Counted from the first letter of the stretch, positions 14,756-33,643 are shown. The stretch: 64,000 bases of DNA from Desulfatiglandales bacterium (GCA_963667015.2 CAXXJJ010000004.1:3808001-3872000); one strand, 5' to 3'. Notes: generated from the sequence alone by a model not told the origin. A program made the numbers and translations.

Positions 14756-17700
14756 TTAATAAAGCCATGCTCTAAGTATAGAAAACAACCTCTCCTTTTC
14801 AAAGGGTTTGGAGAGATAATCACTTGCCCCGGCCTCCAGACATTTTGCACGATCGCCCTTCATCGCCTTGGCTGTAAGAGAAATAATGGGCAGGCTTGCA
14901 AAAATTTTCTGTTTCCGGATTTTTTTAATTGCTGTAAAGCCATCCATCTCCGGCATCATCATATCCATTATGACAAGATCAATATCATGGTTATTTCTTA
15001 GACAGTCCAGGGCTTCATAGCCGTTCTTTGCTACAAGAACCCTCATGCCTTTCTGCTCCAGGATATTTGTCACCACGAAAACATTGCGCATATCATCATC
15101 TGTAAGAAGTATCTTTTTATCCTTAAATATTGACTCCTTATCATTGATAAGCCGCAGCATCTTTCTTTTTTCTTCAGGAAGCTTTGATTCTGCCAGATGT
15201 ATGTACAAAGAGACTTCTGCCAATAGTTTTGCAGGGGAATTTACGCCTTTTACGATAATGCTTTCTGTATATTCATCAAGGATTGCCCGTTCATGGGCAG
15301 TGAGTTTTTTTCCAGTGTACACAATAATAGGAGAAGCAAACCTGGACCGGTTATTTTTTATTGCTGAAAGTATCTCAAAACCGGACATGTCCGGAAGCGA
15401 TAGATCCAGAATAACACAATCAAAACCTGTATCTGCGAGCTTTTCCATTGCCTCTTCGCCGGTTGATACGTTGACTATCCTGACACCCGTGCCATCAAAC
15501 AGTTTTTCTATTATTTTTCTTGTAACCAGATTATCTTCAACTAAAAGAATACTTTTATCAGATTTTGAAATTATCTTTTCAATATCTGTGAACAGTTTTT
15601 CCAGGTCTTCCATGCTGACAGGCTTTTGTATAAAATCTGCAGCCCCCATCTTCATGGCTTCACGTGAACTGTCAGACGCCGAAATAAAATAAACCGGTAT
15701 ATGTCTAGTTTCATTATTTTCCTTAAGGCGCGTCATTACGGTCCAGCCGTTGACAACAGGAAGCTTTATATCCAGAATTATAGCAGAAGGTTTATAAATT
15801 TCTGCTAGATGAAGGCCGGCCTTACCGTCCTGTTCAATAACAACTTTTAATCCCTTTTTTCGGAAAAAATCTCTCAGGGCTTCAGTAAACTTTGGATCAT
15901 CATCGATTATCAAAATTGAATTATCATTTTCCGATATTCCATCCCGATCATCAGATACGATCTGACCAGTTTTATCCGTCTTTTCATGTTTTTTTCCTGC
16001 GGCTGTATCCTGTAACGGATCATTTCTATCGGACAACCCATTGATAACATCATCTGTAACCAGAGAGAGCCTCGGTGATTCCGGAAGGTATAAAATAAAG
16101 GTAGCCCCTTTCCCAGACTTGCTTTCAGCCTGTATTTCACCTCCGAGGATGCCGGCAAGCTCCTTTGATATTGATAATCCCAAACCGGTACCTCCATATT
16201 TTCTGCTTGTAGAACCATCTGCCTGCTGAAAGGCGTCAAAAATAAGACTAAGTTTTTCTTTGGGGATGCCAATACCTGTATCGGAAACAGCAAAGGAAAT
16301 GCATTGATCATGCCTTAATCCGCTCAGGGACAGATCTGTTTTTCTGTCCGGCCTGCTGATCCTTAGCTCTATTCCTCCACGCGATGTGAATTTGAATGCA
16401 TTTGATAACAGATTTTTTAAGACCTGTTCAATTCTCTGGCTGTCAGACCGTATTACCGGGGGAAGGCCATCATCTATAGATATAGTGAAACTTATATTTT
16501 TCTCCGCTACAACCGGTTTAAAATTCCTTTCGACCGCGTTTGTTATTTCAATTAACGGAACATCCTCAATATTCAGTTCTACTTTTCCGGATTCAACCTT
16601 TGAAAGATCAAGTATCTCATTTATAAGTTTTAACAGATCATATCCCGAAGACTGAACGGATTTTGCATATTCAACCTGCTTTTCTGTCAGATTTTCATCC
16701 CTGTTGTCTGAAAGAAGCTGAGATAAAAGGATAATGCTGTTGAGCGGAGTTCTTAACTCATGAGACATGTTTGCCAGAAACTGGGATTTATACTGACTTG
16801 CAATCTCAACTTCCTTTGCCCTGTCTTCAAGGAGCCGACGCGCTTCTTCCAGTGCGAGGTTTTTCACTTTCATATCTTCTTTCTGTTTTTCCAGGATCTG
16901 CGTCTGCTCTTTCAGCACCTCATTCTTTTGTTTTAATTCTTCCTGCTGTATCTTGAGCCTTTCCTCAGATTCTTTGTGGGCCTTTGTCTCTTCCTCAAGT
17001 TTTTCATTAGCCTTCCTCAGGTCCTCCTGCTGTTTTTTAAGTTCCTCTGCCTGCGATAGAGTCTTTTCAAGAAATTCATCCATTTTCTGTCGCGACTGGG
17101 CATTATCCAGGGCTATTGCTATACTTTTTGAGAGAAAATCAAATAAATCCCTGATTCTTTCAGGAAAGCCATATATAGTTCCCACCTCAATAATAACCAT
17201 GGTATCTCCATTATCATCAGGGATGGGTACTATTAAGATGTTTCTGGGGACCATTTCTCCCAGGCCTGAACTGATGGTTAAATGATCGTCAGGGACATCC
17301 GTGAGATTAATAATTATTTTTTCAAGTGCTACCTGACCCAGGAGTCCTTCCCCTGGTTTGAACTCTTCGGCATTGCTGTTTTTGCTTCGCGCATATGCGT
17401 AGCTTCCATATAATCTGAATGTACTGTTTTCCCGGATATATATTATACCGGTTTGGGCGTTAACGTATTCGCAAACAAATGTAATTATCCTGCCGCAAAG
17501 ATCAGTGACACCCTGAGCCTTTCTCATCCCCTCAATAAGTGCAAACCGCCCGTTATTAAGCCAGGCCTGATAATCATTTTCTTCCATGGCATCTTTCAAT
17601 TTCAATATTATATCATTGAGAGATAATGCCAGTGCCCCGATCTCATTATCTGTACTGATTTCTATTATCTGGTCAAATTTACCCGATGCCGCCTGTCTGG

Positions 17701-17950
17701 CGCTCCTTAAGAGCTTTTCAATGGGGTCAGAAATACCTTTAGCCGCAATAAAGGCCAGTAAAGTGACAAAAATTATAAGTAGAACAATAAGATATATTGA
17801 AGCATGCGCATAATCGAAATACCGGTCAACAACTATAGGAATTAATGCAATTACCAAAAACCATAACAGAAGAGATTTAAATAATCTACCGGCATAGAAC
17901 AAACTAAAAATTACAGATCTGTCTTTATCATTGCTGTCATTGGCAGTCAT
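14756..17950 (-). CDS. Hybrid histidine kinase (HAMP-GAF-HK with three REC domains)
   Basis: FLANMSHELRTPLN, NLLSNAFKFT, GGTGLGL, three receivers. Confidence 0.93.
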   Translation of the reverse strand: MTANDSNDKDRSVIFSLFYAGRLFKSLLLWFLVIALIPIVVDRYFDYAHASIYLIVLLIIFVTLLAFIAAKGISDPIEKLLRSARQAASGKFDQIIEISTDNEIGALALSLNDIILKLKDAMEENDYQAWLNNGRFALIEGMRKAQGVTDLCGRIITFVCEYVNAQTGIIYIRENSTFRLYGSYAYARSKNSNAEEFKPGEGLLGQVALEKIIINLTDVPDDHLTISSGLGEMVPRNILIVPIPDDNGDTMVIIEVGTIYGFPERIRDLFDFLSKSIAIALDNAQSRQKMDEFLEKTLSQAEELKKQQEDLRKANEKLEEETKAHKESEERLKIQQEELKQKNEVLKEQTQILEKQKEDMKVKNLALEEARRLLEDRAKEVEIASQYKSQFLANMSHELRTPLNSIILLSQLLSDNRDENLTEKQVEYAKSVQSSGYDLLKLINEILDLSKVESGKVELNIEDVPLIEITNAVERNFKPVVAEKNISFTISIDDGLPPVIRSDSQRIEQVLKNLLSNAFKFTSRGGIELRISRPDRKTDLSLSGLRHDQCISFAVSDTGIGIPKEKLSLIFDAFQQADGSTSRKYGGTGLGLSISKELAGILGGEIQAESKSGKGATFILYLPESPRLSLVTDDVINGLSDRNDPLQDTAAGKKHEKTDKTGQIVSDDRDGISENDNSILIIDDDPKFTEALRDFFRKKGLKVVIEQDGKAGLHLAEIYKPSAIILDIKLPVVNGWTVMTRLKENNETRHIPVYFISASDSSREAMKMGAADFIQKPVSMEDLEKLFTDIEKIISKSDKSILLVEDNLVTRKIIEKLFDGTGVRIVNVSTGEEAMEKLADTGFDCVILDLSLPDMSGFEILSAIKNNRSRFASPIIVYTGKKLTAHERAILDEYTESIIVKGVNSPAKLLAEVSLYIHLAESKLPEEKRKMLRLINDKESIFKDKKILLTDDDMRNVFVVTNILEQKGMRVLVAKNGYEALDCLRNNHDIDLVIMDMMMPEMDGFTAIKKIRKQKIFASLPIISLTAKAMKGDRAKCLEAGASDYLSKPFEKERLFSILRAWLY

Positions 17951-18090
17951 TATGTGTCAATTCCTGTCTCAAAGATGTTACAAAAAACTATATTTTAATT
18001 CATTAATAAGACATAATGCTTTATGATAAGGCTTAATTAGTTTCCAATTAGTGCCTCAAAACTGTTTATGGATGGGCACTAATTAAATAT

Positions 18091-18106
18091 AGCAAAATCC
18101 CTGCCA
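18091..18106 (-). promoter_or_regulatory. Sigma-54 -24/-12 promoter for the hybrid kinase operon
   Basis: TGGCAGGGATTTTGCT (GG-N10-GC). Confidence 0.6.
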
Positions 18107-18310
18107 AAATCTTTTTAAGACATTTTTTATGAATTAAATTAACAAGTTATACAAATAACAAAGGCATATTTCAGAAAGAATTGAAAAATATAAACTAATA
18201 GGCATGATTTATGTCAAAATATTGACCTAAAATTAATTAACCTGTTGAGATTACAGAAAAGCCGGTAGATGCTGTCATTCCTGATTAATGAAGAAAGGGT
18301 TGTCTTTATT

Positions 18311-19117
18311 TCAGCCCGAATATTTTTTTGAAATAGCCTCAATTACCGCCCTGGCAATTATTTTTGCCTGAGGTGTAATTTCAAAGCAGATGTCCCTGTC
18401 ATTACCGGGATGAATGTCCCCAAGTTTTTGCCCCTTCCTGACACTGGCCGGAGTCCGTATAAGTCCCCAGACAATACCTGAAATCGGCGAAAGCAGTTTT
18501 ATGTCATCTACATACCCTATTATCCCGCCTTTTTTGACACTGTCTCCAATATCCTTTATCCCGGAGAGGGTGCCTGACCCCGGACTGGTTAAAAGCCTTT
18601 CAAGTGACTTACCCAGTACCTCGGTAGGTATTCCTGTATGCTCTTCAGCACATCCTTCCTCGATAACCTTTCCAAGTTCATGGATGTTCGGGTTTGTTTC
18701 AATAACATAATGGACATCTTTTCCGGCATAAAACCCGGGACCGAGGGCAATAACAAGGGGAGCCTGATCTATATGTGTGCCGGTATTCCTCTTTGCAAGG
18801 ATGCTGTCAACGATTATGTCGGGACAGATACTTTTAATAAGCTCATTATCCGGGGTGATAAGGAGGGGGATGACACCCTTTGACCACAGGGCATTTACAG
18901 AGTCAATCGATGGATCAGCCTTTTCGCAGACAATGCCCTTTACCTCTTTTCTTTGTTCAATTGCAGCTTCGCAAAAACATACACCCCTTCTTTCTGCCAG
19001 GGGATAAGGGAGGTCAGTCATTATAAGTCTTGTGAATCCATTGGAGAAAAGCTCATGAGCAACAGCGCTTGCCTTTTCTCCTGCACCCTTGATTAAAATA
19101 GTAAGTAATTTATTCAT
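18311..19117 (-). CDS. yqeB: Selenium-dependent molybdenum hydroxylase system protein, YqeB family
   Basis: ILIKGAGEKASAVA, DSILAKRNTGT, IALGPGFYAG, HTGIP. Confidence 0.82.
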   Translation of the reverse strand: MNKLLTILIKGAGEKASAVAHELFSNGFTRLIMTDLPYPLAERRGVCFCEAAIEQRKEVKGIVCEKADPSIDSVNALWSKGVIPLLITPDNELIKSICPDIIVDSILAKRNTGTHIDQAPLVIALGPGFYAGKDVHYVIETNPNIHELGKVIEEGCAEEHTGIPTEVLGKSLERLLTSPGSGTLSGIKDIGDSVKKGGIIGYVDDIKLLSPISGIVWGLIRTPASVRKGQKLGDIHPGNDRDICFEITPQAKIIARAVIEAISKKYSG

Positions 19118-19129
19118 TTCTGTTTTTTA

Positions 19130-19840
19130 TCAGCGAATATCCACTTTTACCCTGATTTGTTTGTCCGGATAGATGTCACTGTCTGTCTTCAGTGAAACAT
19201 AGTCGCTGTATTTACCTTTTTCTTTCTTTAAACTTGTGATGGTTACCTTGTATTTACTCGGTTCCGAGCTCTCAATTTCTTCCAGTTTGACAGCTATATT
19301 TCCTTTTTTTGATTCGGCAGAAAGCACGTTTAACGGGTGCCTCCTGTCATGGGAAATAAAAATTTCGGCCTTAAGATTTTCTCCTTCATTGCCCTCAAGG
19401 GTTACCCTGGTCGGTTCAATAATAAGGATTGGATCCACATTGCCCTTTATTGAAAGATCAAAACTCTCTTTGTTCGGATCATTGCTGTCACCCCGCACCT
19501 TATAATCAACCGTCCCGCTCGATCCCTTGCTGTCAAATTCAAGGGTAACAACACCCTTTTCACCGGGCATGATTTTCTCTGTATAGTCTGCAACAGCACA
19601 TGCGCAGTTTGATCTTACCCTCGGGATCAGCAGCGGCTCATCGCCTTTATTCTCAATAATAAAATCACGGGTAATTACTGTACTCTCAAGTATGGTCCCG
19701 AAATCATAGGTGTCTTTTTCAATATAGAGAACAGGGGCGGCTCCGGCTTCAACGGAAAACCCAAGCAACAGGACACCATAATAAAATAAACATGAAACAG
19801 CAAATACTATTCTATGGAGATATTTTTTAACTTTTTTCAT
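19130..19840 (-). CDS. DUF1573-domain exported Ig-like protein (CxC form)
   Basis: YDFGTI, FIIENKGDEPLLI, SNCAC, IMPGEKG. Confidence 0.75.
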   Translation of the reverse strand: MKKVKKYLHRIVFAVSCLFYYGVLLLGFSVEAGAAPVLYIEKDTYDFGTILESTVITRDFIIENKGDEPLLIPRVRSNCACAVADYTEKIMPGEKGVVTLEFDSKGSSGTVDYKVRGDSNDPNKESFDLSIKGNVDPILIIEPTRVTLEGNEGENLKAEIFISHDRRHPLNVLSAESKKGNIAVKLEEIESSEPSKYKVTITSLKKEKGKYSDYVSLKTDSDIYPDKQIRVKVDIR

Positions 19841-19970
19841 AATATTACCCCGACCTTGTTATATTAAAATTTGATCTTTATATATAGTAATTTTCAAAAT
19901 TCATTGCAAGTAGTTGCAAGACATTGGACATCACAGGTAACCGATTTATTCATAAAACAGGCCGGCAACT

Positions 19971-20022
19971 ATCGTTTTATCCAATCCATCCCGAATTATT
20001 TATCGGAATATACAACTTGACA
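19971..20022 (+). promoter_or_regulatory. Shared operator/promoter, site 3 (Mo-hydroxylase operon)
   Basis: ATCGTTTTATCCAAT-N16-ATCGGAATATACAAC-TTGACA. Confidence 0.72.
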
Positions 20023-20088
20023 AATTTGTCGCCCATTTATAAGTAGAATATGTATCATTGAAATATTCAATTTTTTACCGGAGTTTTT

Positions 20089-20148
20089 ATGAAGATATTT
20101 TTCGGCTTTACCTGAGGGATTAACAGGTTATCTACCCGGGTCTGGTAG
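20089..20148 (+). CDS. Leader peptide 1, MKIFFGFT-U-GINRLSTRVW (UGA at 20113-20115)
   Basis: GGAG 5 nt before ATG; paralogue at 35760; hairpin CTA-C-CCGG-GT-CTGG-TAG at 20132-20148. Confidence 0.72.
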
Positions 20149-20350
20149 TCCAGGGAACGGCTGAAGAATAATTATCAACATCATATAACAATCAAAAAAC
20201 ACTTCTCCCTACCCCTGGCCTTTAATTTGTTGCCACCTGCAATCAGGGAAAACCTGTCCCTTCATACTATATTAGTACCAGGCAATAAATAAATCAGCGC
20301 AAAAAAACTCATCCCTTAATGTGCGAAATCGCCAGAAAGGAAGGTTAAAA

Positions 20351-20851
20351 ATGAAATATGTCAAGGTCAGCGCAAGAGTCGAACGCCGTATCAAATCTCT
20401 TGAACAGTCCGACAAAGCTGGAAAGATAATAGCAAAAAAGGCTGAAAGCATTATTGAAGATATAAAATCGGGCGCCACGGCTGAACACCGGGAACAAAAA
20501 GGCATGTTTACAAAATACGGAGAGAAAAGGATCAAGTATTGCAGGAAATATGATTTCGGATGCGGCTATCGCATGATTACCCTGCAACAGGACTCAACGA
20601 TTCTGGTTCCCTTTTTAGGCACCCATGACGAATGTCACCGATGGCTGGAAACCAATAATAAATCAAAACATATCGCTGCAGGAAACGGAACGGTTGTTTC
20701 TGTTCAATATGAAAGACAGGATGAGGAAGATTCCCCCTGTGATGAGATTCCTGAGCTATTTATGGATGAAACCCCACTGGACATAAGCGAACAGGATTTA
20801 CGGGTTGTGTTTCGCGGTCTGGTAGAGGGCGCAAAGAGGAGATCAAGGTAA
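20351..20851 (+). CDS. Hypothetical protein, possibly RelE-like fold
   Basis: RBS GGAAGG; GYRMITL..FLGTHDEC. Confidence 0.6.
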   Translation: MKYVKVSARVERRIKSLEQSDKAGKIIAKKAESIIEDIKSGATAEHREQKGMFTKYGEKRIKYCRKYDFGCGYRMITLQQDSTILVPFLGTHDECHRWLETNNKSKHIAAGNGTVVSVQYERQDEEDSPCDEIPELFMDETPLDISEQDLRVVFRGLVEGAKRRSR

Positions 20852-20861
20852 GAGACCGATT

Positions 20862-21911
20862 ATGACCATGGCATCACAGTGGAAAAACGAATATAAAATT
20901 CTGAAAAACTATATTAAATCAAATCCGGAAATCTCAATTGGTATGTACGAAACCTCCATACCTGAGGATTTTCGCGGGAAATTTTACGCACTCTTTGACA
21001 ATGTGCGAAAGGCCTTCGTTGAGTCATGGGTCAGCTCATTTGATCTCGATTTTCATTCCCTTGGAAAAAACTTTATTGAAGCGGAAAAGACAATCGCCCA
21101 AAGCTTAAACCTCAAGCATATGGATTTACCGGTTGATCTGGCCAGTTTTCTGCATAACCCGGAAAAAGGCATGATGCGTCTTCTATATAATCGCCTTTTT
21201 GAGCTTATTCAGGGTAAAATAGCAGAAGCTGACTTTGAGAAGATGGCTGAAGAGGACCTCAACCCGAGCGCCTACAATTTTTTCCGGCTGGGTTATGAGC
21301 AGTGGGCCGCTGTTTCCATCCTGCTGTTGCTTGAGCCGGATGAAATCCATGGTGTCAGCCTTGATGATGATTATAATCTCTGTATATCGGAACTGAATCA
21401 GATTACTTTCGGAAAACAGTATCATCACCCTGCCAAGCGTATCCCTGAATTTATTATTCACTCAAAAAGACTGGAGAGTTATATAGCCTTTAAAATGCCC
21501 CTGGCAACGTCTGTGGAGTTTTACTGTCTTCCGCCGGAAATTCCCACAAAGAGAATACTGAGAGATCGTACAGGAGATACGTCTCAGGTCCTTGGGTCCA
21601 GAATGCTCTTTCTGGCTGTTGTACCGGACCTGAAAAAACTGCCGGTATTTGCCGATTTACATGAGCGGACAATATGCGGGCCTGATTTAACTTTAGAATT
21701 TTTAACGGGGTATGAGCTCTCTGACCCGGCAGCCCTCCAGAAGGTTCAAACGCATGTGGAAATTATGAAACCACCCCTTGGGGGAAATATAGTGCTTGTT
21801 GACAATAACCCGGATACTGTGCCGGATAAAAGGGAAACAGGTATGGATATATTTTCAGTAAGGCTTGATCAGTCAGGATTACAACCAATTATAGATAAAT
21901 TAGCTAATTAA
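20862..21911 (+). CDS. Hypothetical protein
   Basis: 349-aa ORF inside the operon; no recognised motif. Confidence 0.7.
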   Translation: MTMASQWKNEYKILKNYIKSNPEISIGMYETSIPEDFRGKFYALFDNVRKAFVESWVSSFDLDFHSLGKNFIEAEKTIAQSLNLKHMDLPVDLASFLHNPEKGMMRLLYNRLFELIQGKIAEADFEKMAEEDLNPSAYNFFRLGYEQWAAVSILLLLEPDEIHGVSLDDDYNLCISELNQITFGKQYHHPAKRIPEFIIHSKRLESYIAFKMPLATSVEFYCLPPEIPTKRILRDRTGDTSQVLGSRMLFLAVVPDLKKLPVFADLHERTICGPDLTLEFLTGYELSDPAALQKVQTHVEIMKPPLGGNIVLVDNNPDTVPDKRETGMDIFSVRLDQSGLQPIIDKLAN

Positions 21912-21943
21912 CCTATTACCCATTATACTTCAGGAGGAAAAAA

Positions 21944-22663
21944 ATGGCTGATGAAAAAACCAACGTTAACCGCAGAAGCTTTCTTAAGAATGCGGGCGTC
22001 ATCATCGGCGGCAGCGCTATCGGAGCCGCGGGTATGACTTTAAGACCTGAAATGGCACAGGCCGCAGACGCTGTTAAATCAGTGCCAAAAACCGTTACAC
22101 AGTTCCGTTGCCCGGTGTGTAATAAAAACTTCAGCAGCTTTGCTGAATTGAAGCATCATTTTCAGACCGATCACCCGGAAAATGTTATGCCCACCACCAC
22201 AAAGCTCAATATCAACGGAGAGGATTGCGAGGTCCTGATAGAGCCCCACTGGACTCTTCAGCGTACACTCCAGTTCAAGCTGGGCCTGAGCGGCGCCAAA
22301 CACATGTGCGGCCGGGGTGCATGCGGGTCATGTACTGTAATCATGGATGGCAGGGCAATCCTGTCATGTACTACTCTGGCAGTTGAGTGTGAAGGAAAAG
22401 CAATCCAGACCGTAGAAGGTATTGCGGCTGATCCCAAATGGAGACCCCTCATTGATTCTTACTGTAAGTGGGATGCCATGCAGTGCGGTTACTGTACACC
22501 CGGGATGCTGGTTTCCGCGAAAAACCTTCTTGATAAAACACCCAATCCTACAGCGGAAGACTGTAAACAGGCCCTCGCTGGCAACCTGTGCAGCTGCGGC
22601 ACATATCACCGACACCCCACAGCTATTTTGGAAGCTGCCCAGACAATAAAAGGAGGTGCATAA
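21944..22663 (+). CDS. Molybdenum hydroxylase small (2Fe-2S) subunit with Tat signal and C2H2 finger
   Basis: NRRSFLK; CPVC..HFQTDH; CGRGACGSC, QCGYCTPG, GNLCSC. Confidence 0.9.
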   Translation: MADEKTNVNRRSFLKNAGVIIGGSAIGAAGMTLRPEMAQAADAVKSVPKTVTQFRCPVCNKNFSSFAELKHHFQTDHPENVMPTTTKLNINGEDCEVLIEPHWTLQRTLQFKLGLSGAKHMCGRGACGSCTVIMDGRAILSCTTLAVECEGKAIQTVEGIAADPKWRPLIDSYCKWDAMQCGYCTPGMLVSAKNLLDKTPNPTAEDCKQALAGNLCSCGTYHRHPTAILEAAQTIKGGA

Positions 22664-22664
22664 C

Positions 22665-25022
22665 ATGGCAGATTTAACTGTAAACGGAGACAGAAAAGAA
22701 TTCAAGGTAGTAGGGAAACCACATCTGCCCGGTAAACTGTCATGGGCAGTAGCAACCGGTGTGGCAAAATTCGGAGCAGACTATGTGATTCCGGATATGG
22801 TTGAAGCAAAATTCATGCGCAGCCCCTATGCCCATGCCAAGATAAAAAGCTATAACCTGAAAAAGGCCCTGGCTGTTCCAGGTGTTGTGGACATAGTCAC
22901 ATATGACGATCCGGATATGCAGAAATTTAAACTCAGCGGCCTTATGGGCGGTTCACCATATCCTTTTCTTGACAGTGTTGCCCATGAGGAAAACGGGGTA
23001 GTCGGATTTATAGTCGTTGCGGAAAACGAGGATATCTGCGAAGAGGTGTTAAGGCAGATTGACGTGGAATGGGAAGAACTGCCAAATGTAACTGACATTA
23101 AAAAAGGAAGAGAGAATGATGCCCCGGTAATACGTCCCGAGGATCGAAGCGGCCCCGGTGGATTCAGCAGAGGACCCAGCAATAATCCGCCTAAAAAGGG
23201 AAATGTCGCCTTTTCCAATCAGAACCAGGGTGATGTGGAACAGGGTTTTAAAGAGGCTGACTACATTGTTGAGTACGACCTTAATATGCCTACATACGCA
23301 TCAGCCTCACCAAATCCTCACGGATCAGTAGCGTGGTGGTTTGACGATCCCTACCTGGGCAGGGACAATATCCACATAGAAGGCGCTGTCTGGCATGCCA
23401 GCGGCGGTAAAAATGCAATCGCGCAGCTTTACGGCCTGCCTCCGGAAAAGACGGTACAGGAAGGTCTCTTCCAGGGCGGCAAATACTGCGACTGGACAAT
23501 ACGCAGATCACAGAAAATCACTCCCTTTCTTTCAAAAAGGGTGGGAAGGCCTGTACGCTGTATAAACGAACGCAAGGACACCTTTGACTTTATGGTCTCC
23601 CAGCGTTTTATGCACATGAAGGTCGGATTTAAAAAGGACGGCACAATAACCGCCTTTGATGACTTCTCAATAGCTGACGGCGGAACCCCGGGCAATTCAT
23701 TCTTCGGCACCTCGGGCGACCAGGGCTACAGCCCATACATTGGCACAAAATGTAAGAACATAAGACAGAATATGGATATTGTAGACAGCAACCGCGGTCT
23801 TATGGCCTTCAGCTCACAGTTCTGTCCCTTTAACTGGGATTCAGTCACTATGGCAATACATATGATTGCCGAAAAACTCGGAAAAGACCCCATTGATATC
23901 GCAAGAATCAATCTTCACGGCCCTGACGGTCAGGATGACAACAGACCTGTTCCAAGCTTTGACGCATGCATTGAAGCCGGAAAAAAAATGATGAACTGGA
24001 AATGGCATAAAAACGGCGCAAAGAGGCTTAAAGACGGAAGACTCCACGGCGCCGGCTTCAGATATCAGATGTGCCCTAGACATTCAATGGGTTCGGATTT
24101 TCACGCTGTACTCGAGCTTCGGGACGGTGTAGTGCACCTGCCGATACAGGGCCCCCATGCAGGAGTATTTTCCGTTGAAGGCGTTGCCATGATTGCGGCT
24201 GAAGAACTCGGCCTCAGGTTCGAGGATATCAGCATTGATTACGATCCCAATGCAATGTTCGTATCCATCAGCGGAGGGGCAGACGGGCTTGTAAATACCG
24301 GATGGGTTTTAAAACAATGCGCTCACAAATTAAGGAAGGAAATTTTTGAGGCAGCTATTGCCGAGGCCGAAAAACCTGCCCCCATGGGCTTCGGCTTTGG
24401 ACCACCTCGAAAGGCTGCTCCAAATCCGTTGAAGGGCAAAAAACCCGAAGACCTGGATATAATAGACGGAATGATCGTGCTTAAGTCTGACAACACAAAA
24501 GGAGTACCGCTTAAGAGCCTTACATCAAATGTATATGCGACATTTGCCGGCTGTGCGCCTAATCCAGTATGGCCAAGCAAGTACGATCTTTTAAACACCC
24601 TGTACTGTGAAGTAGCCGTGGATGAAGAAACCGGTGAAGTAGAAGTCCTGAGATACGAAGCGGCTGTTGACTCCGGCAAGGTAATAAGGCTTACCTCCCT
24701 TGAAAGTCAGCTTAACCAGGTTGCGATCTTCAGCCAGGGATGCCAGCTCTATGAGGACTATTTCTATGATCCTAAAACAGGTATTAAACTCAACCATAAT
24801 TATATTGAGTACAAAAAAGCGGGTATGCTGGATGTAACGGACGTTAAGGAGCCGGAATTGATAGAGACCCGCGCCGGCAACGGGGTATACGGTGCAAATG
24901 GCATAAGCCATTCAATGGCGAACACGCACCTTATTATCTGTGCTATCTACAACGCCATTGGCAAATGGGTTGATCCGCCTGCTACACCGGACAAGGTTCT
25001 CGCGGCACTGGGCAAGATATAA
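22665..25022 (+). CDS. Xanthine dehydrogenase-family molybdopterin-binding subunit
   Basis: RSPYAHAKI, EVAVDEETGEV, IYNAIG..PATPDKVL. Confidence 0.88.
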   Translation: MADLTVNGDRKEFKVVGKPHLPGKLSWAVATGVAKFGADYVIPDMVEAKFMRSPYAHAKIKSYNLKKALAVPGVVDIVTYDDPDMQKFKLSGLMGGSPYPFLDSVAHEENGVVGFIVVAENEDICEEVLRQIDVEWEELPNVTDIKKGRENDAPVIRPEDRSGPGGFSRGPSNNPPKKGNVAFSNQNQGDVEQGFKEADYIVEYDLNMPTYASASPNPHGSVAWWFDDPYLGRDNIHIEGAVWHASGGKNAIAQLYGLPPEKTVQEGLFQGGKYCDWTIRRSQKITPFLSKRVGRPVRCINERKDTFDFMVSQRFMHMKVGFKKDGTITAFDDFSIADGGTPGNSFFGTSGDQGYSPYIGTKCKNIRQNMDIVDSNRGLMAFSSQFCPFNWDSVTMAIHMIAEKLGKDPIDIARINLHGPDGQDDNRPVPSFDACIEAGKKMMNWKWHKNGAKRLKDGRLHGAGFRYQMCPRHSMGSDFHAVLELRDGVVHLPIQGPHAGVFSVEGVAMIAAEELGLRFEDISIDYDPNAMFVSISGGADGLVNTGWVLKQCAHKLRKEIFEAAIAEAEKPAPMGFGFGPPRKAAPNPLKGKKPEDLDIIDGMIVLKSDNTKGVPLKSLTSNVYATFAGCAPNPVWPSKYDLLNTLYCEVAVDEETGEVEVLRYEAAVDSGKVIRLTSLESQLNQVAIFSQGCQLYEDYFYDPKTGIKLNHNYIEYKKAGMLDVTDVKEPELIETRAGNGVYGANGISHSMANTHLIICAIYNAIGKWVDPPATPDKVLAALGKI

Positions 25023-25105
25023 TAAAAGCAAGGTTCAAGGTTTAAGGCTTAAGGTTCAGGGTAAAGGCCTTAAATCTAAACCAAAAAGCTAACAAGGAGA
25101 AAAAA

Positions 25106-26082
25106 ATGAAGCCATTTAATCATACAAATGCAACATCAATTGCAGAAATCAAAACAGCCCTTGCCGACGGTAAAACTACGCTTATTGCAGGCGGGACTGA
25201 TCTATTAGGGACACTCAAGGATAATATCCTTCGCGACTACCCTTCTACAGTAATTAATATTAAAACCGTTCCCGGGCTTGATTATATCAAGGAAGAAAAG
25301 GGAATACTCAAAATAGGAGCAACAACACGTCTGGCAGATATTGCGGCTGATCCCACTGTGCAGAAGAAATACACTGCACTGGCCCAGGCAGCGTCACGTG
25401 TAGCTTCACCCCATATCCGGGACATGGGTACCATAGCTGGAAATATTGCACAGCTTCACAGGTGCTGGTATTTTCGCAAACCGGAAAACCGCTTTGACTG
25501 TAAACGAAAGGGAGGATCAACATGCTTTGCCATGAGCGGTGACAACCGTTACCACTCAATCTTTGGTGCAGAAGGCGGGTGCCTTGCGGTTCATCCCAGT
25601 GATACAGCTCCCGCACTTATAGCACTCAACGCAAAGATAGTTACGGACAGCAGGACAATTGAGGCGGATAATTTTTTTGAGGTAAAACAGCCTGGGAATA
25701 CGGTTCTTGCGAAGGATGAAATAATCACTGAAATTCAGATCCCTGAGCCTCCAAAGGGCTGTAAAAGTGCATTTATCAAATTTGCCTCGCAGGGAAGAGC
25801 GTCCGTAAATCCATTGACTTCCCCATTGTAAACTGTGCGGTAATGGTCGGTGGCAAAGAACCAAGGATTTGTCTGAACGCCGTTGCACCCAGGCCTTATC
25901 GTGCAACAAAGGCAGAAGAAGCCATCGCAGGGAAGAGCGTTAAAAAGCTCAATGAAAAGCTGGCTGATGCAGCAGGGGAGGCGGCTGTTTCCGAGGTAAA
26001 ATCATTTCCCAGTGCAGCCCAGTTTAAAAAACAGATAGCTAAAACCATTGTAAAACGGGCAATTCTTATGGCGACAGCCTGA
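25106..26082 (+). pseudogene. FAD-binding subunit of the Mo hydroxylase, frameshifted near 25787-25802
   Basis: IAGGTDL, IRDMGTIAGN, HPSDTAPAL; the expected KFA-x-RKSIDFPIVNCAV continues in another frame. Confidence 0.8.
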
Positions 26083-26159
26083 TAAGGATGATGCAATATT
26101 TAGACTAGGGAAGAACAGATCGTTCTTCCCTGTTGTTTTATATGAATAAGGAGGAAACG

Positions 26160-26477
26160 ATGTTAACAGTAACAGACAAGGCAAACGAAAAGATCACAGA
26201 TTTTCTTAAGGCCCAGAAAGACCCGTCATGCATAAGGTTTTTCCTCTCAGAAGGCGGCTGCTCAGGGCCTTCTATTGGAATGGCTCTTGATGAGCCGTCA
26301 GAAAATGATGAGGTTATAAAAGACAACGGGGTAACCTACTTAATTGACAAAATGCTGCTGGAAAAGGCAAAACCGATAAGTGTTGACTTTATTGAATCTG
26401 AGACCGGTTCGGGTTTTTCAATCTCCTCCAGTTTACCAAAGGGAACAGGGTGCAGCTCTTGCTCAAGCTGCTCCTGA
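26160..26477 (+). CDS. IscA/HesB-like protein, Cys form (GGCSGPSIGMALDE)
   Basis: RBS AGGAGG; family motif; C-terminal CSSCSSC. Confidence 0.85.
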   Translation: MLTVTDKANEKITDFLKAQKDPSCIRFFLSEGGCSGPSIGMALDEPSENDEVIKDNGVTYLIDKMLLEKAKPISVDFIESETGSGFSISSSLPKGTGCSSCSSCS

Positions 26478-26530
26478 TCAGATAAAATACAGGGATTTTC
26501 AATTCAACTTAATACAGAAGGAGAAAAGAG

Positions 26531-27403
26531 ATGAAATATGCCAAATTAATGATTTTGTCGGGTGTATTGCTGTCGATTCTGGCCGCAGGAACTGTTTACG
26601 CAGCGGCCCAGGATCAGTGGGAGGTATTAATACCCAGGGCAATCGACGGGGTGAAGGTGAGAATGGCTGCATTCCACAACGAAAACTTTGGCGTCTGGGG
26701 CGGAGCCGGGGACGAAGGCGCCCAGCACTATACCCTTGACGGAGGCAAGACCTGGACGGCGGCAAAGACCGGAGGCTGCATGTTCTCCGTGGATATCGTG
26801 GATACTGACACAATATGGCAATCCTGTCTGAGCGGTACAAGTCTGACTGTAGACGGCGGGAAAAACTGGAAGGTCATTGCAAAAGATGTCGGCGGTCTGG
26901 CCAGCATCCTTGCCTTTGCGGATGCAAAGACAGGATGGGTAGGTTCCGCAAATAAGTTTAAAGTGACCAGGGACGGCGGGGCAACGTGGAATGAACTGAC
27001 CCTGCCCGAAGGAGTCAACGCTGTTGCTGCAATTTCACTCCGCACTCCGACCGACGGGTACCTGATAGGAAAGGATGGTGTCCTGTACATTACAAATGAC
27101 TGCGGCAAGTCCTGGAAGTCCGGTTCACTGGGCCTTGAAAACCCTGTTATTTCCGGGTTCGACAACGATTGGGTCGAGACTCCGCAGGCTGCCGTGCGTT
27201 TTACCGACGCCAAAAATGGCCTGGTCGTTCTGGGACTTTCAGGCAATGAGAATATGATTGCCCTGCGAACAGAAGACGGCGGGAAATCCTGGAAAAAAGA
27301 AAACGTACCCGCTAAACCGGGGAAACCCTTTATCTCCCGTGACGGAAAATTTTTGACGATAAGCAAATGGCAGGTAGGGCTTACACTCCTCAAAGCCAAC
27401 TAG
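26531..27403 (+). CDS. Exported YCF48/BNR-repeat beta-propeller protein
   Basis: Signal peptide; repeated T-x-DGG-x-T/SW Asp-boxes. Confidence 0.8.
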   Translation: MKYAKLMILSGVLLSILAAGTVYAAAQDQWEVLIPRAIDGVKVRMAAFHNENFGVWGGAGDEGAQHYTLDGGKTWTAAKTGGCMFSVDIVDTDTIWQSCLSGTSLTVDGGKNWKVIAKDVGGLASILAFADAKTGWVGSANKFKVTRDGGATWNELTLPEGVNAVAAISLRTPTDGYLIGKDGVLYITNDCGKSWKSGSLGLENPVISGFDNDWVETPQAAVRFTDAKNGLVVLGLSGNENMIALRTEDGGKSWKKENVPAKPGKPFISRDGKFLTISKWQVGLTLLKAN

Positions 27404-27414
27404 GTGTTCCTTTT

Positions 27415-27924
27415 ATGATCACAGGTATTATGCAATGGCTTTTCCCGTGTTTTCTTTCACTTAAGAAGCATAATACCTGTATTCATATCCCGTGCGTTCT
27501 GCACTGGCTGTTTCGATTCATTCTGTCCGGCATCTTTTTATACAGCGGCTATGTCAAATGGAAAAGTCCGTTGCGGTTCGAGGCGGTGCTTTATGCATAT
27601 GACCTGTTTCCGGACGTATATATTCCTGCCATAGCCCTGTATTTCCCCTGGGTTGAAATAATTCTTGGCCTGTTACTCCTGATTGGATTCAGACGAAAGA
27701 TCCGATATCTGGCCGGAGCCTCCACCATGCTGCTGCTTTTTTTTATAACCATTATAATCATCACCTATTTCCGGGGGATTGAAGTAGATTGCGGATGCCT
27801 GGGCTTCGACGATCCGATCTCTCCCTGGACAATCGCCCGCGATACCCTGATGCTCATTCCTGCCATTTATCTGCTGTTCGCAGACCCTCTGCTTCGCAGA
27901 AGCCTTAAGAGTCCAACCCCTTAA
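27415..27924 (+). CDS. MauE/DoxX family membrane protein (start uncertain)
   Basis: RFILSGIFLYSG, PWVEIILG, DCGCLG. Confidence 0.78.
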   Translation: MITGIMQWLFPCFLSLKKHNTCIHIPCVLHWLFRFILSGIFLYSGYVKWKSPLRFEAVLYAYDLFPDVYIPAIALYFPWVEIILGLLLLIGFRRKIRYLAGASTMLLLFFITIIIITYFRGIEVDCGCLGFDDPISPWTIARDTLMLIPAIYLLFADPLLRRSLKSPTP

Positions 27925-27935
27925 AAAAGAATCAA

Positions 27936-27987
27936 ACCGGCTTTTCCGGTACTACATAGTCTTTTTATCGATATTTCCAGTTTGACA
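27936..27987 (+). promoter_or_regulatory. Shared operator/promoter, site 4 (UshA-like cytochrome)
   Basis: ACCGGCTTTTCCGGT-N16-ATCGATATTTCCAGT-TTGACA. Confidence 0.8.
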
Positions 27988-28246
27988 CACAAGAGGATTT
28001 ATTGAAATTATAGGCACATTCACAATCAAGGGTCGTGATGTGCTTGTCCGAAGACGGTAAGAGCTTCAGCCGCATAGTAGAAAGCAAAGACGCTCAGGGC
28101 AATGATATCAGGGTTATTCAGTTTTTTGAAAAGCAGTAAAGCCGTTTGTCACGGTTGTTCCCTTTAAAATCAATTCAATTGCCTGCCTGCAATCATTACA
28201 GGCATTGCGGCGCAGGCGCATTTAATGCATATTCCGGGAGGCTAAA

Positions 28247-29605
28247 ATGAAGAAAATATCAGTTTATATCCTTATTCCACTGCTTGCGGCAGTCATCCTT
28301 TCAACCTTATCTCATACAGAAGATTCAAATGCGGCTGATAACCCGGAGATCACCATTGTCTACAGCAGTAATGTTCTGGGTTATTATCAGCCATGCGGCT
28401 GCAGTGAAGGCGAACAGCTTGGCGGATTGTACAAAAGGTCCACATACCTTAACAATTTTAGAAAAGAACATGGCGAGGTTATCATAGTCGATTCCGGTGA
28501 TCTGCTAAATGAGAATGAAGATCTTTCCGACAAAGTACTTGAATCGGCAAAACTTAAAGCTAAGCTCATAGCTCAGATATACAATACAACAGGAATCGAT
28601 GCAGTGGCTGTCGGTGAACTGGACCTGGTTTTAGGTATTGATTTTCTTAAAGAGCTGCAGGGAAAATATAATTTCCCTTTCATTTCCGCCAACCTGGTTG
28701 ATGAGAAGAACATCCCCTTTTTTAAGCCCTACATTATTAAAAAAATAAACGGAAAGAATGTTGGTATATTCGGGCTTATAGGAAGCAGTTCCGAGATGGG
28801 TTCGAAAATAGAAAAGCTTACAGGCGGTAAAGCAAAGGTTCTGGATACTTTAAAGACCGCAGAAACCATTATTAATGAACTGTCAGGGAAAGTCGATTAC
28901 ATGGTTGCAGTTGCTCATCAGCGAACCAACAGAAACTGGGTAATGGCAAAAAAGGTACCGGGAATAGATTTGATTGTCGTAGGTCATGATAAGCTCAAAA
29001 CAGAGAAACCAAGTAAGGCCGGTAATTCCCTTATTGTACAGGCAGGAGAAAAGGCCCAGCACCTTGGAGTGCTGGAGGTTACAATAAATGATTCTCAAAC
29101 TGAGCATAACATGCTGGTCCCCCTTGGCAACAAAATAGAAGATGATCAGAAGATCAAGGATATGATAGGTGAGTATGAACACAGTGTCGCATCTATGTAT
29201 AATAACCAGGTTCAGGAAAATGCCGCCACTAAAAATGTTGTATCAAGAGTTGCTGTGTGTGAAGCCTGCCATGAAGATCAGGTAAAGGCATGGGACGCCA
29301 CGGACCATGCCCATGCATACGATACGCTGGTCCAAAAATCAAAGCAGCTTGACCCTGACTGCCTGAACTGTCACACAACCCGTTTCGAGCAGCCCGAAGG
29401 CTTTACTATGCAACTTAAGCAGATGGAACTGGCAAATGTTCAGTGCGAAAATTGTCATGGGTTTGCAAAGGAACACCTGAATGACGGAACGCCGATTCCT
29501 GTGGCAAAGCCTGGTATGGATCTATGCCTTAAATGCCACAGCCCCTATCGGTCACCTGATTTTGAAAAGAATGCTGCTGAGATTTTTGAGAAAATAAAAC
29601 ACTAG
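28247..29605 (+). CDS. UshA-like metallophosphoesterase domain fused to a tetraheme cytochrome c; Cys form (PCGCS)
   Basis: QPCGCS..LGG, VDSGDL, ISANL, IVVGH; CEACH, CLNCH, CENCH, CLKCH. Confidence 0.85.
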   Translation: MKKISVYILIPLLAAVILSTLSHTEDSNAADNPEITIVYSSNVLGYYQPCGCSEGEQLGGLYKRSTYLNNFRKEHGEVIIVDSGDLLNENEDLSDKVLESAKLKAKLIAQIYNTTGIDAVAVGELDLVLGIDFLKELQGKYNFPFISANLVDEKNIPFFKPYIIKKINGKNVGIFGLIGSSSEMGSKIEKLTGGKAKVLDTLKTAETIINELSGKVDYMVAVAHQRTNRNWVMAKKVPGIDLIVVGHDKLKTEKPSKAGNSLIVQAGEKAQHLGVLEVTINDSQTEHNMLVPLGNKIEDDQKIKDMIGEYEHSVASMYNNQVQENAATKNVVSRVAVCEACHEDQVKAWDATDHAHAYDTLVQKSKQLDPDCLNCHTTRFEQPEGFTMQLKQMELANVQCENCHGFAKEHLNDGTPIPVAKPGMDLCLKCHSPYRSPDFEKNAAEIFEKIKH

Positions 29606-29619
29606 TCAATGTAATTTTT

Positions 29620-29646
29620 GTAGAGACAGGTTTCAAACCTGTCTCT
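29620..29646 (+). repeat. REP-like palindrome
   Basis: GTAG followed by AGACAGGTTT-C-AAACCTGTCT. Confidence 0.5.
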
Positions 29647-29668
29647 GATTTTTCATTCCAACATTTTA

Positions 29669-30808
29669 CTATAGCATTTCGATATAGGCCTCTATTCTAA
29701 CCCGGAGCTGTCCGGTATCGCTCTCGGAATAATCCGTTTCCAGGTGCAGCGACGGAACGCCCAGGAGCTCCTGGACCAGCTCATCCACCATAAAGGCTTC
29801 AATGTTGTAGGTGTGGCAGGCCTGCCAGGTGAGATCGATTACGCCGTCAACAGAGAAATCCCTGATTATTTCGGAAAGGAGATCAAACCTGCCATTATTG
29901 GGACTCATAACCGAGCAGGGGGTCCTAAGATACTGTTCGGCCAGGGCATCCATGGGGTCTTTATCCTCTGCGACCTGGAAGGCCTGCTTGTAACCGGAAC
30001 AGCTCTCAAAGGCAACCACGTCTGCCCCGATCTGCTCAACTATCCTGATAACCTTTTCACTCCCGATTCCGACCGGAACACCGGTAAGGAGAATTCTTTT
30101 TTTATTGTTGCCGCTTTCCACCGGGGAGGCTGTTTCATGGTGCTTTATAACTTCCTGCATCAGATCGATACCTTTTTCCTTGTTCGCCAGAAACCCAACC
30201 TTTAAAGAGGACCTCGAGCAGTTGCGTAAACCTGGAAGCGGCGCGGGTATTGGCTTTATTGATAGGTCCATCAGGGCCTTTCTTGTCATGCGTTCCCTGT
30301 TCATCAGCCCTATGGCATCCTTTAGTTTATCCTGAGTGTAATCGTTACACCGGTCAGTTGTTCCACAATGGCCTTGAAATGATGCAGCTCATTTTTCCAT
30401 GCTGCAAGCGCCAGTGTCATCATCCTGCAGTGAAGGCAATTGCATCACGTGGGTTGTCTTGGTTCGGTTCAACAGTTCGAACATCTTCTTTTTACCGTCG
30501 CAGGTAGTGTCACCTATGATAATATCGGAAAAGGCGAAAAAAGGGCAGGTATCAGTAATTGCAAATCCATAGCTCGATTTGATCAGCGGGCATAGGTTGC
30601 GCGGAAGCACATCTTCGGCTGCGGTTATGGGGTTGTTGCTGGTGCCGCACAGGGGCAATGGAATAGCGCCGGCGGCAACGGCTATCTCCATGGGAGAATA
30701 GAGGCAGTAGTATCCTACAGCGGCTCTGCCGTCCTTTTTCATCTGTTCAATATCCTCAGGATTCTGATCCATGGCCTGCTGGAGTCTTGTCATCAGTTTT
30801 TCAGTCAT
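29669..30808 (-). pseudogene. Second DCCP-like reductase, frameshifted around 30300-30400
   Basis: N-part YCLYSP, LCPLIKSSYG, TTCDGKKK; C-part ESCSG, WQACHTY, ETDYSESD in a separate ORF. Confidence 0.82.
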
Positions 30809-30901
30809 ATCTGCACCTTTCGCAACCGGTTATTTTCAAGAGAAATTTGTTAACTGATTTTATGAATAAGTCAGATGGAATTTTAATTGAGGAGAAAGGA
30901 A

Positions 30902-30953
30902 TGTCAAACAAGAGTTTCCGATCTATTTAAGTTATCTCATAGACACACCCTAT
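30902..30953 (-). promoter_or_regulatory. Shared operator/promoter, site 5 (second DCCP)
   Basis: ATAGGGTGTGTCTAT-N16-ATCGGAAACTCTTGT-TTGACA. Confidence 0.8.
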
Positions 30954-31334
30954 TTATCTATGCCATTTAACGGTTTATTTTCTTTCCTAACAGCCTTCTT
31001 TGATTTTTTCCTTCCCACAATAACATTCCTACACGTAACACCCAGTATCTTTTTATTCTGCATTGCAGAAACAGTCCCACCCTGAAACCTCTAGGATGAC
31101 ATTGGAGCCTGCATGACATGAGAAACTGCCCATCCCGCTTTTCTCATCAAATTACCCTAATTATTTATAAGGGTGGCCGCTTCACAAGTTGTTGTCTTGT
31201 GAAAGGGGCAGTTATCATGTTATTAGATAAAATAGTTTCAACCTTATAATAGGACATGTGCTGTTTTTCCATACCAAAGGTGCATGTAAACTGCGCGAAC
31301 AACGGCATCCCAAATATCATTAAGGAGTAAAAAT

Positions 31335-31883: not shown

Positions 31884-31942
31884 TCATTTAAAGATGCCCC
31901 TGTTTATATTCAACAGGGAAAGATCCCTCGCCGGGATGGATC

Positions 31943-32290: not shown

Positions 32291-32367
32291 AGGAGACACA
32301 GGTAAAAAGGCAACTTAAACTGGCTGACCTCATGCCTTTTTACTCCTGCTCTTACTCCAACAATTAA

Positions 32368-33603: not shown

Positions 33604-33643
33604 TGCGGAGACAGTGACTGGGAGACTGGGATGCCTTTACTTA

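Follow-up and report, generated by a model that had tools for sequence, protein, structure and literature searches.

A conserved UGA-ended leader ORF with a SECIS-like hairpin and alternative helices, a candidate sensor of selenocysteine decoding in Desulfatiglandales

The 64,000-nucleotide (nt) stretch of Desulfatiglandales bacterium DNA analyzed here (GCA_963667015.2, CAXXJJ010000004.1:3808001-3872000; the window, whose genome is designated G000) carries two related RNA leaders, leader 1 on the plus strand and leader 2 on the minus strand. Each contains an upstream open reading frame (uORF) of eight codons that ends in FGFT-UGA, followed by a hairpin resembling a selenocysteine insertion sequence (SECIS) and by segments that can form two mutually exclusive helices. 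Searches of related genomes show that the leader is more than a chance arrangement, and that the element is real, widespread among sulfate reducers, and linked to selenium. It is likely to act as a ribosome-mediated cis sensor of UGA decoding by selenocysteine (Sec)-tRNA and SelB that controls a selenium regulon, a variant of leader-peptide attenuation. The coordinates of all features in the window are given in Table 1.

Results

Spread of the leader and invariance of its UGA

The first-pass annotation of the window, made from the sequence alone, had described a GGAG-led uORF encoding MKIFFGFT-UGA with a -35 box 72 nt upstream, all of which are present as described, and had proposed a search for the uORF pattern. 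In its degenerate form, ATGAARN6TTYGGNTTYACNTGA, this pattern has 2 matches in G000 and none in the reversed control, and within the family it occurs at 11 sites in 8 of 61 genomes (reversed control, 0). A looser pattern, ATG N9 TTYGGNTTYACNTGA, is found at 86 places in 67 of the 209 genomes of the order, compared with 1 for the reversed control, and at 33 places in 26 of 401 genomes of a phylum sample, where the reversed control gave none. These pattern searches forced the TGA, and two further searches left the stop codon free. With ATG, FGFT, and the hairpin fixed, TGA is present in 42/42 matches; when the fixed elements were reduced to ATG and the hairpin at its proper spacing, TGA stands at codon 9 in 38/38. 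No TAA, TAG, or sense codon occupies the uORF stop position in either search. The third base of the UGA is unpaired in the structural models, yet this A never varies. With the uORF interior free, FGFT is encoded in 33 of the 38 copies, the variation lying mostly at third codon positions, and the remaining five carry the single substitutions FGFS, FAFT, LGFT, FSFT, and SGFT. A minus-strand copy found by the covariance model alone (L079; such handles denote the sites or genomes of related leaders) reads MCRFFSFT-TGA.

The pattern matches comprise 85 unique sites, 76 of which have the hairpin by a simple rule, and 71 of these 76 also have a Shine-Dalgarno (SD)-like motif. In most of the 76 relatives the hairpin begins 15–16 nt after the UGA. 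Directly after the UGA, 37 copies have G, 32 have C, 6 have A, and 1 has T. Beyond the UGA, the frame next meets a stop at a UAG in the 3' arm of the hairpin in 49/76, and this next stop lies exactly 10 codons on in 50/76. Three matches without a hairpin (L024, L053, and L082) and one cut by a contig end (L085) were kept among the 85; the former three were also kept in the 78-site tally of gene context described below, from which L085, having no downstream ORF, was left out. Chance probably accounts for L053 and for L082, which has TGA at codon 2 and lies in an LptC/LptA context. At L024, ahead of yedE-yedF, a uORF encoding MADDFGFT-UGA is present, the hairpin is absent, and there is no covariance-model match; this site is a degenerate or variant leader.

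The final 15 nt of the leader 1 uORF, TTCGGCTTTACNTGA, recur without mismatch in leader 2, at 35734-35748 on the minus strand; 0.47 matches to this sequence would be expected even with 2 mismatches allowed. A covariance model built from 39 copies found only leaders 1 and 2 in G000, with E values of 3.4e-19 and 1.9e-10, respectively (55.1 bits for leader 2), among the 150 of 1938 first-look candidates that were scored. Upstream, ATCGG-N8-14-TTGA is found within 130 nt of 45 of the 76 related leaders; at leader 1 the consensus scan called no plus-strand promoter. A conserved motif, ATCGG(A/T)AT..CAGTTTGAC, overlaps the -35 region in the window at 20002-20022 and at 35823-35843 (minus strand), and a second ATCGG occurs about 18 nt further downstream in some relatives. 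A transcription factor specific to the same regulon may bind at this motif.

Likeness of the hairpin to SECIS elements

G000 decodes Sec, having one SelB, one tRNA-Sec, and single in-frame TGAs in the genes for SelD, HdrA, MvhD, and three FdhA proteins. The genuine SECIS elements of these genes have the loops GGC, GGUC, GGGCU, and GGUCU, which start 21–31 nt from the U of the UGA, and stems that start 11–20 nt after the UGA. The leader loops, CGGGUCU in leader 1 and UGGACU in leader 2, both start at nt 25, and the leader 1 stem starts at 16 nt, so that the stem-loop lies just 3' of the in-frame UGA of an SD-led ORF that is presumably translated. The hairpin top proposed in the first-pass annotation, CCGG-GU-CUGG, cannot form with its 2-nt loop. 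The relatives instead support a stem of CUACC (20132-20136) and GGUAG (20144-20148) closing the loop CGGGUCU, with the in-frame UAG that follows the UGA by 10 codons positioned at 20146-20148 inside the 3' arm. A G at loop position 1 or 2 belongs to the bacterial SECIS consensus as given in the accessible part of a published account (PMC13582414). The commonest loops among the relatives (CGGGUUC, CGGGUUU, and CGUGUUU) all have G at position 2, as do both leaders and the genuine SECIS loops of G000. A search of 17000-32000 against Rfam gave 0 matches at E values up to 1 and also missed the putative SECIS of a TGA-containing double-cubane gene in the same stretch (29669-30808), indicating that the Rfam models do not cover this group. 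The leader hairpin is predicted to bind SelB and to direct insertion of Sec at the leader UGA.

Two mutually exclusive helices

In the first helix, P1, the partner of uORF codons 3–7 (region 1) is GGCYGAARAAUC (region 2), which lies some 45 nt beyond the UGA. In leader 1 this helix comprises 12 base pairs (bp) between 20096-20107 and 20159-20170 and includes the full pairing of 20098-20107 with 20159-20168 noted in the first-pass annotation, which amounts to 10 pairs, 3 of them wobbles. When P1, a weak helix P1b, and the hairpin P2 were imposed on 39 copies aligned with MAFFT, 87.5% of cells were paired compared with 31–55% for slid alignments, 11 pairs were changed on both sides, and 0/500 shuffles equaled the score. 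P1 was supplied as an explicit structure in this test, and RNAalifold on the plain MAFFT alignment returned only the hairpin and a spurious 5-bp stem, with P1 not recovered. A compensatory change is seen in 5 sequences, where the uORF has TTT instead of TTC and the partner strand has A instead of G. Among 87 copies aligned to the model, an alignment that leans towards the structure, 86.7% of cells are paired compared with 32–57% when slid. P2 is the best-conserved stem, with 96–97% of cells paired (96.7% in the model alignment, where 4/5 pairs are changed on both sides).

The second helix pairs region 2 with region 3. In leader 1, 20150-20166 and 20202-20218 form 12 of 17 pairs, as had been claimed, and this pairing is the minimum-energy fold when region 1 is removed. 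Two types of copy are distinguished. In 15 type-A copies AGGCA…GCCAGGCCGAAA pairs with UUUCAGYCUGGC…UGCCU, with 91.7% of cells paired compared with 32–60% when slid and 3 pairs changed on both sides. The 9 type-B copies, of which leader 1 is one, pair CCAGGGUAAGGCUGAAG to CUUCUCCUUUCCCCUGG, with 92.8% paired compared with 47–71%. The two types differ matchingly in both strands of the helix, which is supportive of its formation. The leaders thus combine a short SD-led 5'-leader ORF, whose UGA codon would be read as Sec, with mutually exclusive helices 1:2 (strong covariation) and 2:3 (modest covariation), region 1 lying inside the ORF. Regions 2 and 3 are separated by a G-poor spacer, and across 83 copies the positions +50 to +99 after the UGA contain 8–13% G and 22–35% C. 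Folding of the single sequences is only modestly unusual, with z-scores of -1.97 for leader 1 and -2.91 for leader 2. Among the results of a duplex-energy test of region 2 against downstream sequence, with shuffles, are z-scores of -3.9 (L002) and -3.3 (L004), which bear on region 3 of leader 2; long windows discriminate poorly in this test, many z-scores being near 0, and it is superseded by the region 2:3 alignments.

The anatomy around region 3 differs between the types. Type-A copies have U-rich sequence directly after region 3, so that helix 2:3 could be a terminator. Some type-B copies have a local hairpin with U6 just before a tRNA gene, which helix 2:3 would disrupt, as in classical antitermination. 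Taken together, the anatomy is ambiguous.

Genes downstream of the leader

All sites were fetched and the first two downstream ORFs scanned against NCBIfam, which gave 78 sites with a readable ORF. The leader precedes yedE/yedF at 19 of these sites, selB-like genes at 12, yqeB at 3, and selD at 2, so that at 36/78 sites the controlled genes serve the amino acid that would be sensed. The commonest target outside this core is the double-cubane-cluster reductase (14/78), followed by HdrD, HdrA, or MvhD (8/78), families named "(seleno)protein" by NCBI (8/78), the gene pair without family that follows leader 1 in this window (4/78), NuoE/F-like proteins (3/78), and others (5/78, including the two likely chance matches). 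The TGA of the window's double-cubane copy lies in a region that does not align with the relatives and is uninformative on the Sec or Cys status of the leader-linked reductases.

At 15 sites (L008, L013, L014, L016, L020, L026, L027, L035, L037, L057, L066, L067, L070, L079, and L086) a tRNA with anticodon UCA, identified by ARAGORN, directly follows the leader. These Sec-shaped tRNAs lie 103–191 nt after the leader UGA; U73 is found in all of them and A1:U72 in two. They are usually followed by a second selB that diverges at its C terminus. By sequence, the U73 tRNA(UCA) and second selB are the published pair of selC*, a tRNA-Cys, and selB*, as far as the accessible parts of its original description (Mukai et al., PMC5389517) and of a review (PMC7609411) define it. 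Degenerate remnants of a Sec-shaped tRNA are seen between leader and yedE in L064 and L065. The output of the leader is probably transcriptional, this being the simplest reading because a tRNA gene has no ribosome-binding site to mask.

Discussion

Proposed mechanism and direction of control

The attenuator logic with Sec-tRNA and SelB as input, put forward in the first-pass annotation, is supported at the level of sequence by the invariant UGA, the covarying hairpin at fixed distance, the conservation of both helices, and the selenium-linked genes. In the proposed mechanism the ribosome would reach the leader UGA while RNA polymerase is still inside the leader. With plentiful SelB-GTP-Sec-tRNA, the hairpin would be bound and the UGA decoded, and the ribosome would run about 10 codons to the UAG in the 3' arm of the hairpin, covering the start of region 2. 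With scarce Sec-tRNA, the ribosome would dwell at the UGA and mask region 1, leaving region 2 to pair with region 3. The choice between the two RNA folds would set whether transcription enters the operon.

On balance we favor operons that are ON when Sec decoding fails, because the regulon resembles a selenium-limitation response, comprising yedE/yedF uptake genes, SelD, YqeB, selC*/selB*, and Cys-type HdrA and MvhD. The leader-linked MvhD (4/4, including the window copy) and HdrA (3/3) proteins have Cys where the selenoprotein copies of G000 have U, and the leader-linked genes for UshA-like (4), TsoB-like (2), and OS_HP2 (2) proteins are without Sec.

Several observations weigh against this model. 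The 7/7 Cys forms are weak evidence on direction because Cys-type paralogues are already the majority in G000, and leader-linked SelD (2/2) and a HesB-like protein (1/1) do contain Sec, so that the favored direction is tentative. The second stop is not fixed, 5 copies ending 2–5 codons past the UGA and others 13–27 codons later; since this distance varies among copies, the read-through tail is not a conserved peptide. The leader loop has 6–7 nt compared with 3–5 nt in the genuine SECIS elements of G000, and the P2 motif was found in that genome at leader 1 only, in no selenoprotein gene. The U and G of the UGA may also pair with the CA of CAGGG. The modest covariation of helix 2:3, for which 18–37 of 500 shuffles (type A) and 46–65 of 500 (type B) equal the score, is explained by sequences that were picked by their region 3 motif and are close kin. 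Terminator scans found no intrinsic terminator in 19850-20400 or 35450-35950, in agreement with the earlier remark that a strong U-tailed terminator is lacking from the window, and an element expected of a canonical attenuator is thus missing here. U-tracts before the downstream gene occur in some relatives only, and a U6 tract directly before the tRNA gene only in L016, L069, and L092. SelB is present in 168/209 genomes of the order (90/93 of those of high quality), which makes its presence or absence uninformative on co-occurrence. The model infers from sequence that the uORF is translated, that Sec is inserted, and that SelB binds, as well as the output step and the direction of control.

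Alternative explanations

The same leader could work with the opposite logic, helix 2:3 terminating transcription when a ribosome waits at the UGA, so that operons would be ON with selenium and OFF when Sec decoding fails. We regard this as rather unlikely. In its favor, type-A region 3 (…UGCC) runs straight into U-rich sequence, the extended 2:3 fold of type-B copies before tRNA genes ends beside the U6 tract, the leader-linked SelD and HesB-like protein are selenoproteins, and a selenoprotein operon is switched off without selenium in the case of Treponema primitia fdhF-Sec, according to the accessible part of that report (PMC3892789). Such wiring would turn off the uptake genes, selC*/selB*, and Cys-type HdrA and MvhD just when the cell requires them. 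The loop of the 2:3 hairpin, at 45–55 nt, would also be unusual for an intrinsic terminator, and L064 and L066 have no U-tract. An improbable explanation is that the hairpin is a SelB-binding RNA operator for which translation of the uORF is not needed, SelB with or without Sec-tRNA stabilizing the P1/P2 fold and thereby changing termination or RNA stability. The high conservation of the SECIS-like P2 and the selB-like genes at 12/78 sites would fit an operator, as would the repression of selAB by E. coli SelB through a SECIS-like element in the 5' untranslated region (UTR), insofar as the accessible part of a preprint describes it (bioRxiv 10.64898/2026.03.03.709296). An operator leaves unexplained the SD at the right distance in 71/76 relatives, the fixed 8-codon frame, the invariant third base of the UGA, and its constant 15–16-nt spacing from the hairpin. 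Moreover, over 200 nt separate the hairpin from the start codons under control, and the gene that follows is often one for a tRNA.

Two further explanations give the UGA or the peptide a different role. The UGA could be a plain stop in a leader that senses a small ligand, RF2 activity, or, in the manner of tnaC, arrest by the FGFT nascent peptide, in which case Rho would load on the G-poor spacer. UGA followed by G or C is a weak termination context in E. coli, and 69/76 relatives have one of these bases; the conservation of FGFT (33/38) and the G-poor, C-rich spacer that follows are likewise compatible with this idea. We consider it very improbable, since among at least 80 copies an ordinary stop codon would be expected to have changed to TAA or TAG in some, and it has done so in none, the gene context is almost wholly selenium-linked, and no Rfam family matches. 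Least probable of all, and hardly to be expected, is a small selenopeptide gene with its own function, coexpressed with selenium genes. Reading of the UGA as Sec would yield 19 amino acids in leader 1 (MKIFFGFTU GINRLSTRVW), and the extension of exactly 10 codons in 50/76 copies usually ends in STRV[RW], but this tail is dictated by the hairpin sequence, copies differ in its length (2–27 codons), conservation is lacking in the 5 residues that follow U, and the element always lies in the same-strand 5' leader of another gene.

Comparison with known systems

The trpL, hisL, pheL, and thrL leaders are leader-peptide transcription attenuators of amino acid operons. The sensor of Sec decoding proposed here resembles them in that an SD-led short leader ORF carries the codon of the sensed amino acid, helices 1:2 and 2:3 are exclusive, the position of the ribosome would select the fold, and the controlled genes serve the same amino acid. 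It differs from them in having a single regulatory codon, a stop whose decoding depends on a SECIS-type hairpin and on a special elongation factor, in the lack of a canonical 3:4 terminator with U-tract in the window copies, in the many copies that control a tRNA gene, and in the conservation of the nascent peptide. In the tnaC leader, stalling occurs at a UGA stop and the output is Rho-dependent; free tryptophan acts as the ligand there, and the rut site is immediately adjacent to the stop codon. The leaders described here share with tnaC a conserved nascent peptide ending at UGA and a downstream G-poor stretch as a possible Rho loading site. Unlike in tnaC, about 50 nt separate the UGA from the G-poor spacer, which is thereby beyond the cover of a ribosome at that codon, and the SECIS-like hairpin lies in between.

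To our knowledge, neither a uORF nor an in-frame UGA is involved in the E. coli selAB element. As described in the accessible part of the preprint, its hairpin is placed 3 nt from the selA SD and blocks initiation (bioRxiv 10.64898/2026.03.03.709296), and it is likened to our leaders by the SECIS-like hairpin in a leader of the Sec machinery and by SelB with Sec-tRNA as the presumed signal. In contrast to selAB, the leader hairpins are remote from the SD that serves the regulated gene: the hairpin stands 16 nt past an in-frame UGA, and the start codon downstream of it is 203 nt away in leader 1 and 205 nt away in leader 2. In T. primitia fdhF-Sec (PMC3892789, accessible part) a ribosome at a Sec-UGA with SECIS likewise reads selenium and alters downstream transcription, but the UGA there is inside the structural gene, whereas the leaders described here use a separate mini-ORF of 8 codons, combined with switchable helices, for many operons that are unrelated to one another. 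The selC*/selB*/cysS* system of Desulfobacterales (PMC5389517, accessible part) is matched by the 15 leaders followed by tRNAs with UCA and U73 and then a second selB; unlike the genomes with selC*/selB*, G000 has only one SelB and one tRNA-Sec. No such leader is described in the main-text passages of that study that were consulted, or found by a term search of one supplement. Our literature search, which covered few subscription journals, found no description of such a leader, and term searches of two reviews of prokaryotic selenium use (PMC9312934 and PMC13188914) gave no mention of a leader, riboswitch, or upstream RNA; the former names LysR_Se/HrsM as a selenium transcription factor.

Gene neighborhood in the window

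The window is a cluster of selenium-linked genes, including those for YqeB, the Mo hydroxylase, Hdr/Mvh proteins, double-cubane reductases, and UshA-like and OS_HP2-like proteins. Leader 1 had been placed ahead of a Mo-hydroxylase operon, which is borne out insofar as Mo-hydroxylase genes follow from 21944; the first two genes are ORFs without family. The distance from the UGA to the first gene had been given as 238 nt, and the ATG of the long frame at 20351 lies 235 nt after it. The pair 20351-20851/20862-21911 also follows the leader in L005, L010, and L074, and its first gene alone in L011. The Mo-hydroxylase genes are tightly joined to this pair, with gaps of 10 and 32 nt and an 8-nt overlap. 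The 2Fe-2S subunit has a twin-arginine-like N terminus (RRSFLK) and, at residues 53–78, a C2H2 zinc-finger-like insert that is unusual for the family. The FAD-binding gene stops at 25831, and its C-terminal domain goes on in another frame within 25106-26100 (…FPIVNCAVMV…APRPYRATKAEEA…); this break is a frameshift from sequencing error, decay, or recoding. In public RNA data, which offered low-depth contigs only, the metatranscriptome run X1 has contigs at 19885-20045, 20467-20618, 20639-20772, and 21423-21475, none of them over leader 1.

The MvhD-like protein after leader 2 reads FCCQW-C-SYAAADLAG compared with FCCNF-U-GYTAADLAG in the Sec-type MvhD of G000. Further downstream (31900-33750, minus strand) are a MetF fragment (31943-32299) and a methyltransferase-like fragment (32368-32721), between which short ORFs resemble nucleotidyltransferase or antitoxin remnants, and the leader 2 operon appears disrupted.

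Table 1. Features of the two leaders and of the surrounding genes, in window coordinates
Feature	Position	Strand	Remarks
Promoter-region motif ATCGG...TTGACA	20002-20022	+	-35-like TTGACA at 20017-20022, 72 nt before uORF ATG
SD of leader 1 uORF, GGAG	20080-20083	+	5 nt ahead of ATG; SD-like purine motif in 71/76 relatives
Leader 1 uORF, MKIFFGFT-UGA	20089-20115	+	ATG AAG ATA TTT TTC GGC TTT ACC TGA; UGA at 20113-20115
Leader 1 region 1, 5' strand of helix P1	20096-20107	+	uORF codons 3-7
Leader 1 P2, SECIS-like hairpin	20132-20148	+	CUACC-CGGGUCU-GGUAG; begins 16 nt after UGA
Leader 1 region 2	20150-20170	+	CCAGGG plus P1 3' strand (20159-20170); pairs with region 1 or region 3
Leader 1 spacer between regions 2 and 3	20171-20201	+	No G in 31 nt
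Leader 1 region 3	20202-20218	+	CUUCUCCCUACCCCUGG; alternative partner of region 2
First gene after leader 1	20351-20851	+	No Pfam/NCBIfam family; weak ESM Atlas lead, ParE/RelE-like (0.86-0.87)
Second gene after leader 1	20862-21911	+	No Pfam/NCBIfam family; weak ESM Atlas lead, restriction-endonuclease/PD-(D/E)xK-like
Mo hydroxylase 2Fe-2S subunit	21944-22663	+	NCBIfam equivalog score below cut-off
Mo hydroxylase Mo-binding subunit	22656-25022	+	NCBIfam equivalog score below cut-off
Mo hydroxylase FAD-binding subunit	25106-25831	+	NCBIfam equivalog score below cut-off
YqeB, selenium-dependent molybdenum cofactor maturation protein	18311-19117	-	TIGR03309, 261.8 bits (cut-off 220); divergent neighbor unit
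OS_HP2-like DUF1573 protein	19130-19840		Divergent, upstream of leader 1; without Sec
UshA-like "(seleno)protein" family member fused to cytochrome c domain	28247-29605		Without Sec
Double-cubane-cluster reductase	6435-7547	-	
Double-cubane-cluster reductase	29669-30808	-	Single in-frame TGA at codon 140
Double-cubane-cluster reductase	36643-37920	+	Activase at 38087-38839
Leader 2 uORF, MKKVFGFT-UGA	35734-35760	-	ATG AAA AAG GTT TTC GGC TTT ACA TGA; GGAAGAAGG 9 nt upstream
Leader 2 hairpin	35698-35720	-	AUGACACC-UGGACU-GGUcGUCAU; identical hairpin in L004
Leader 2 region 2	35679-35693	-	GUCGAAAACU pairs with uORF 35743-35752, UCAUG with CAUGA 35734-35738; minimum-energy fold -24.5 kcal/mol, z-score -2.91
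Leader 2 region 3	35593-35602	-	AAUUUUCGAC; complementary to region 2
HdrD/HmcF-like Fe-S protein after leader 2	34209-35492	-	
MvhD-like protein after leader 2	33745-34296	-	Cys at Sec position

Implications

Selenium sensing in bacteria is largely unexplained, and a cis sensor that uses Sec decoding itself would make the question directly testable by simple reporters. The leader marks a tiny ORF missed by annotation pipelines and is a candidate for a genetic switch that responds to selenium. With it, a selenium regulon could be delimited from sequence alone. It would link the double-cubane reductases and several uncharacterized genes to selenium, and would suggest when the puzzling selC*/selB* system of Cys-for-Sec replacement is used. 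More tentatively, and with rather less confidence than in the sensor itself, the leader could be the missing bacterial selenium sensor, through which a failed supply would switch on a whole selenium-limitation programme that includes uptake, activation, Cys-type isoenzymes, and the selC*/selB* pair that would re-read Sec-UGA as Cys. The Cys-tRNA would then decode the leader UGA as well, closing a feedback loop. If this reading is true, the double-cubane reductases and the ParE-like/nuclease-like pair of the window would be new members of the selenium regulon.

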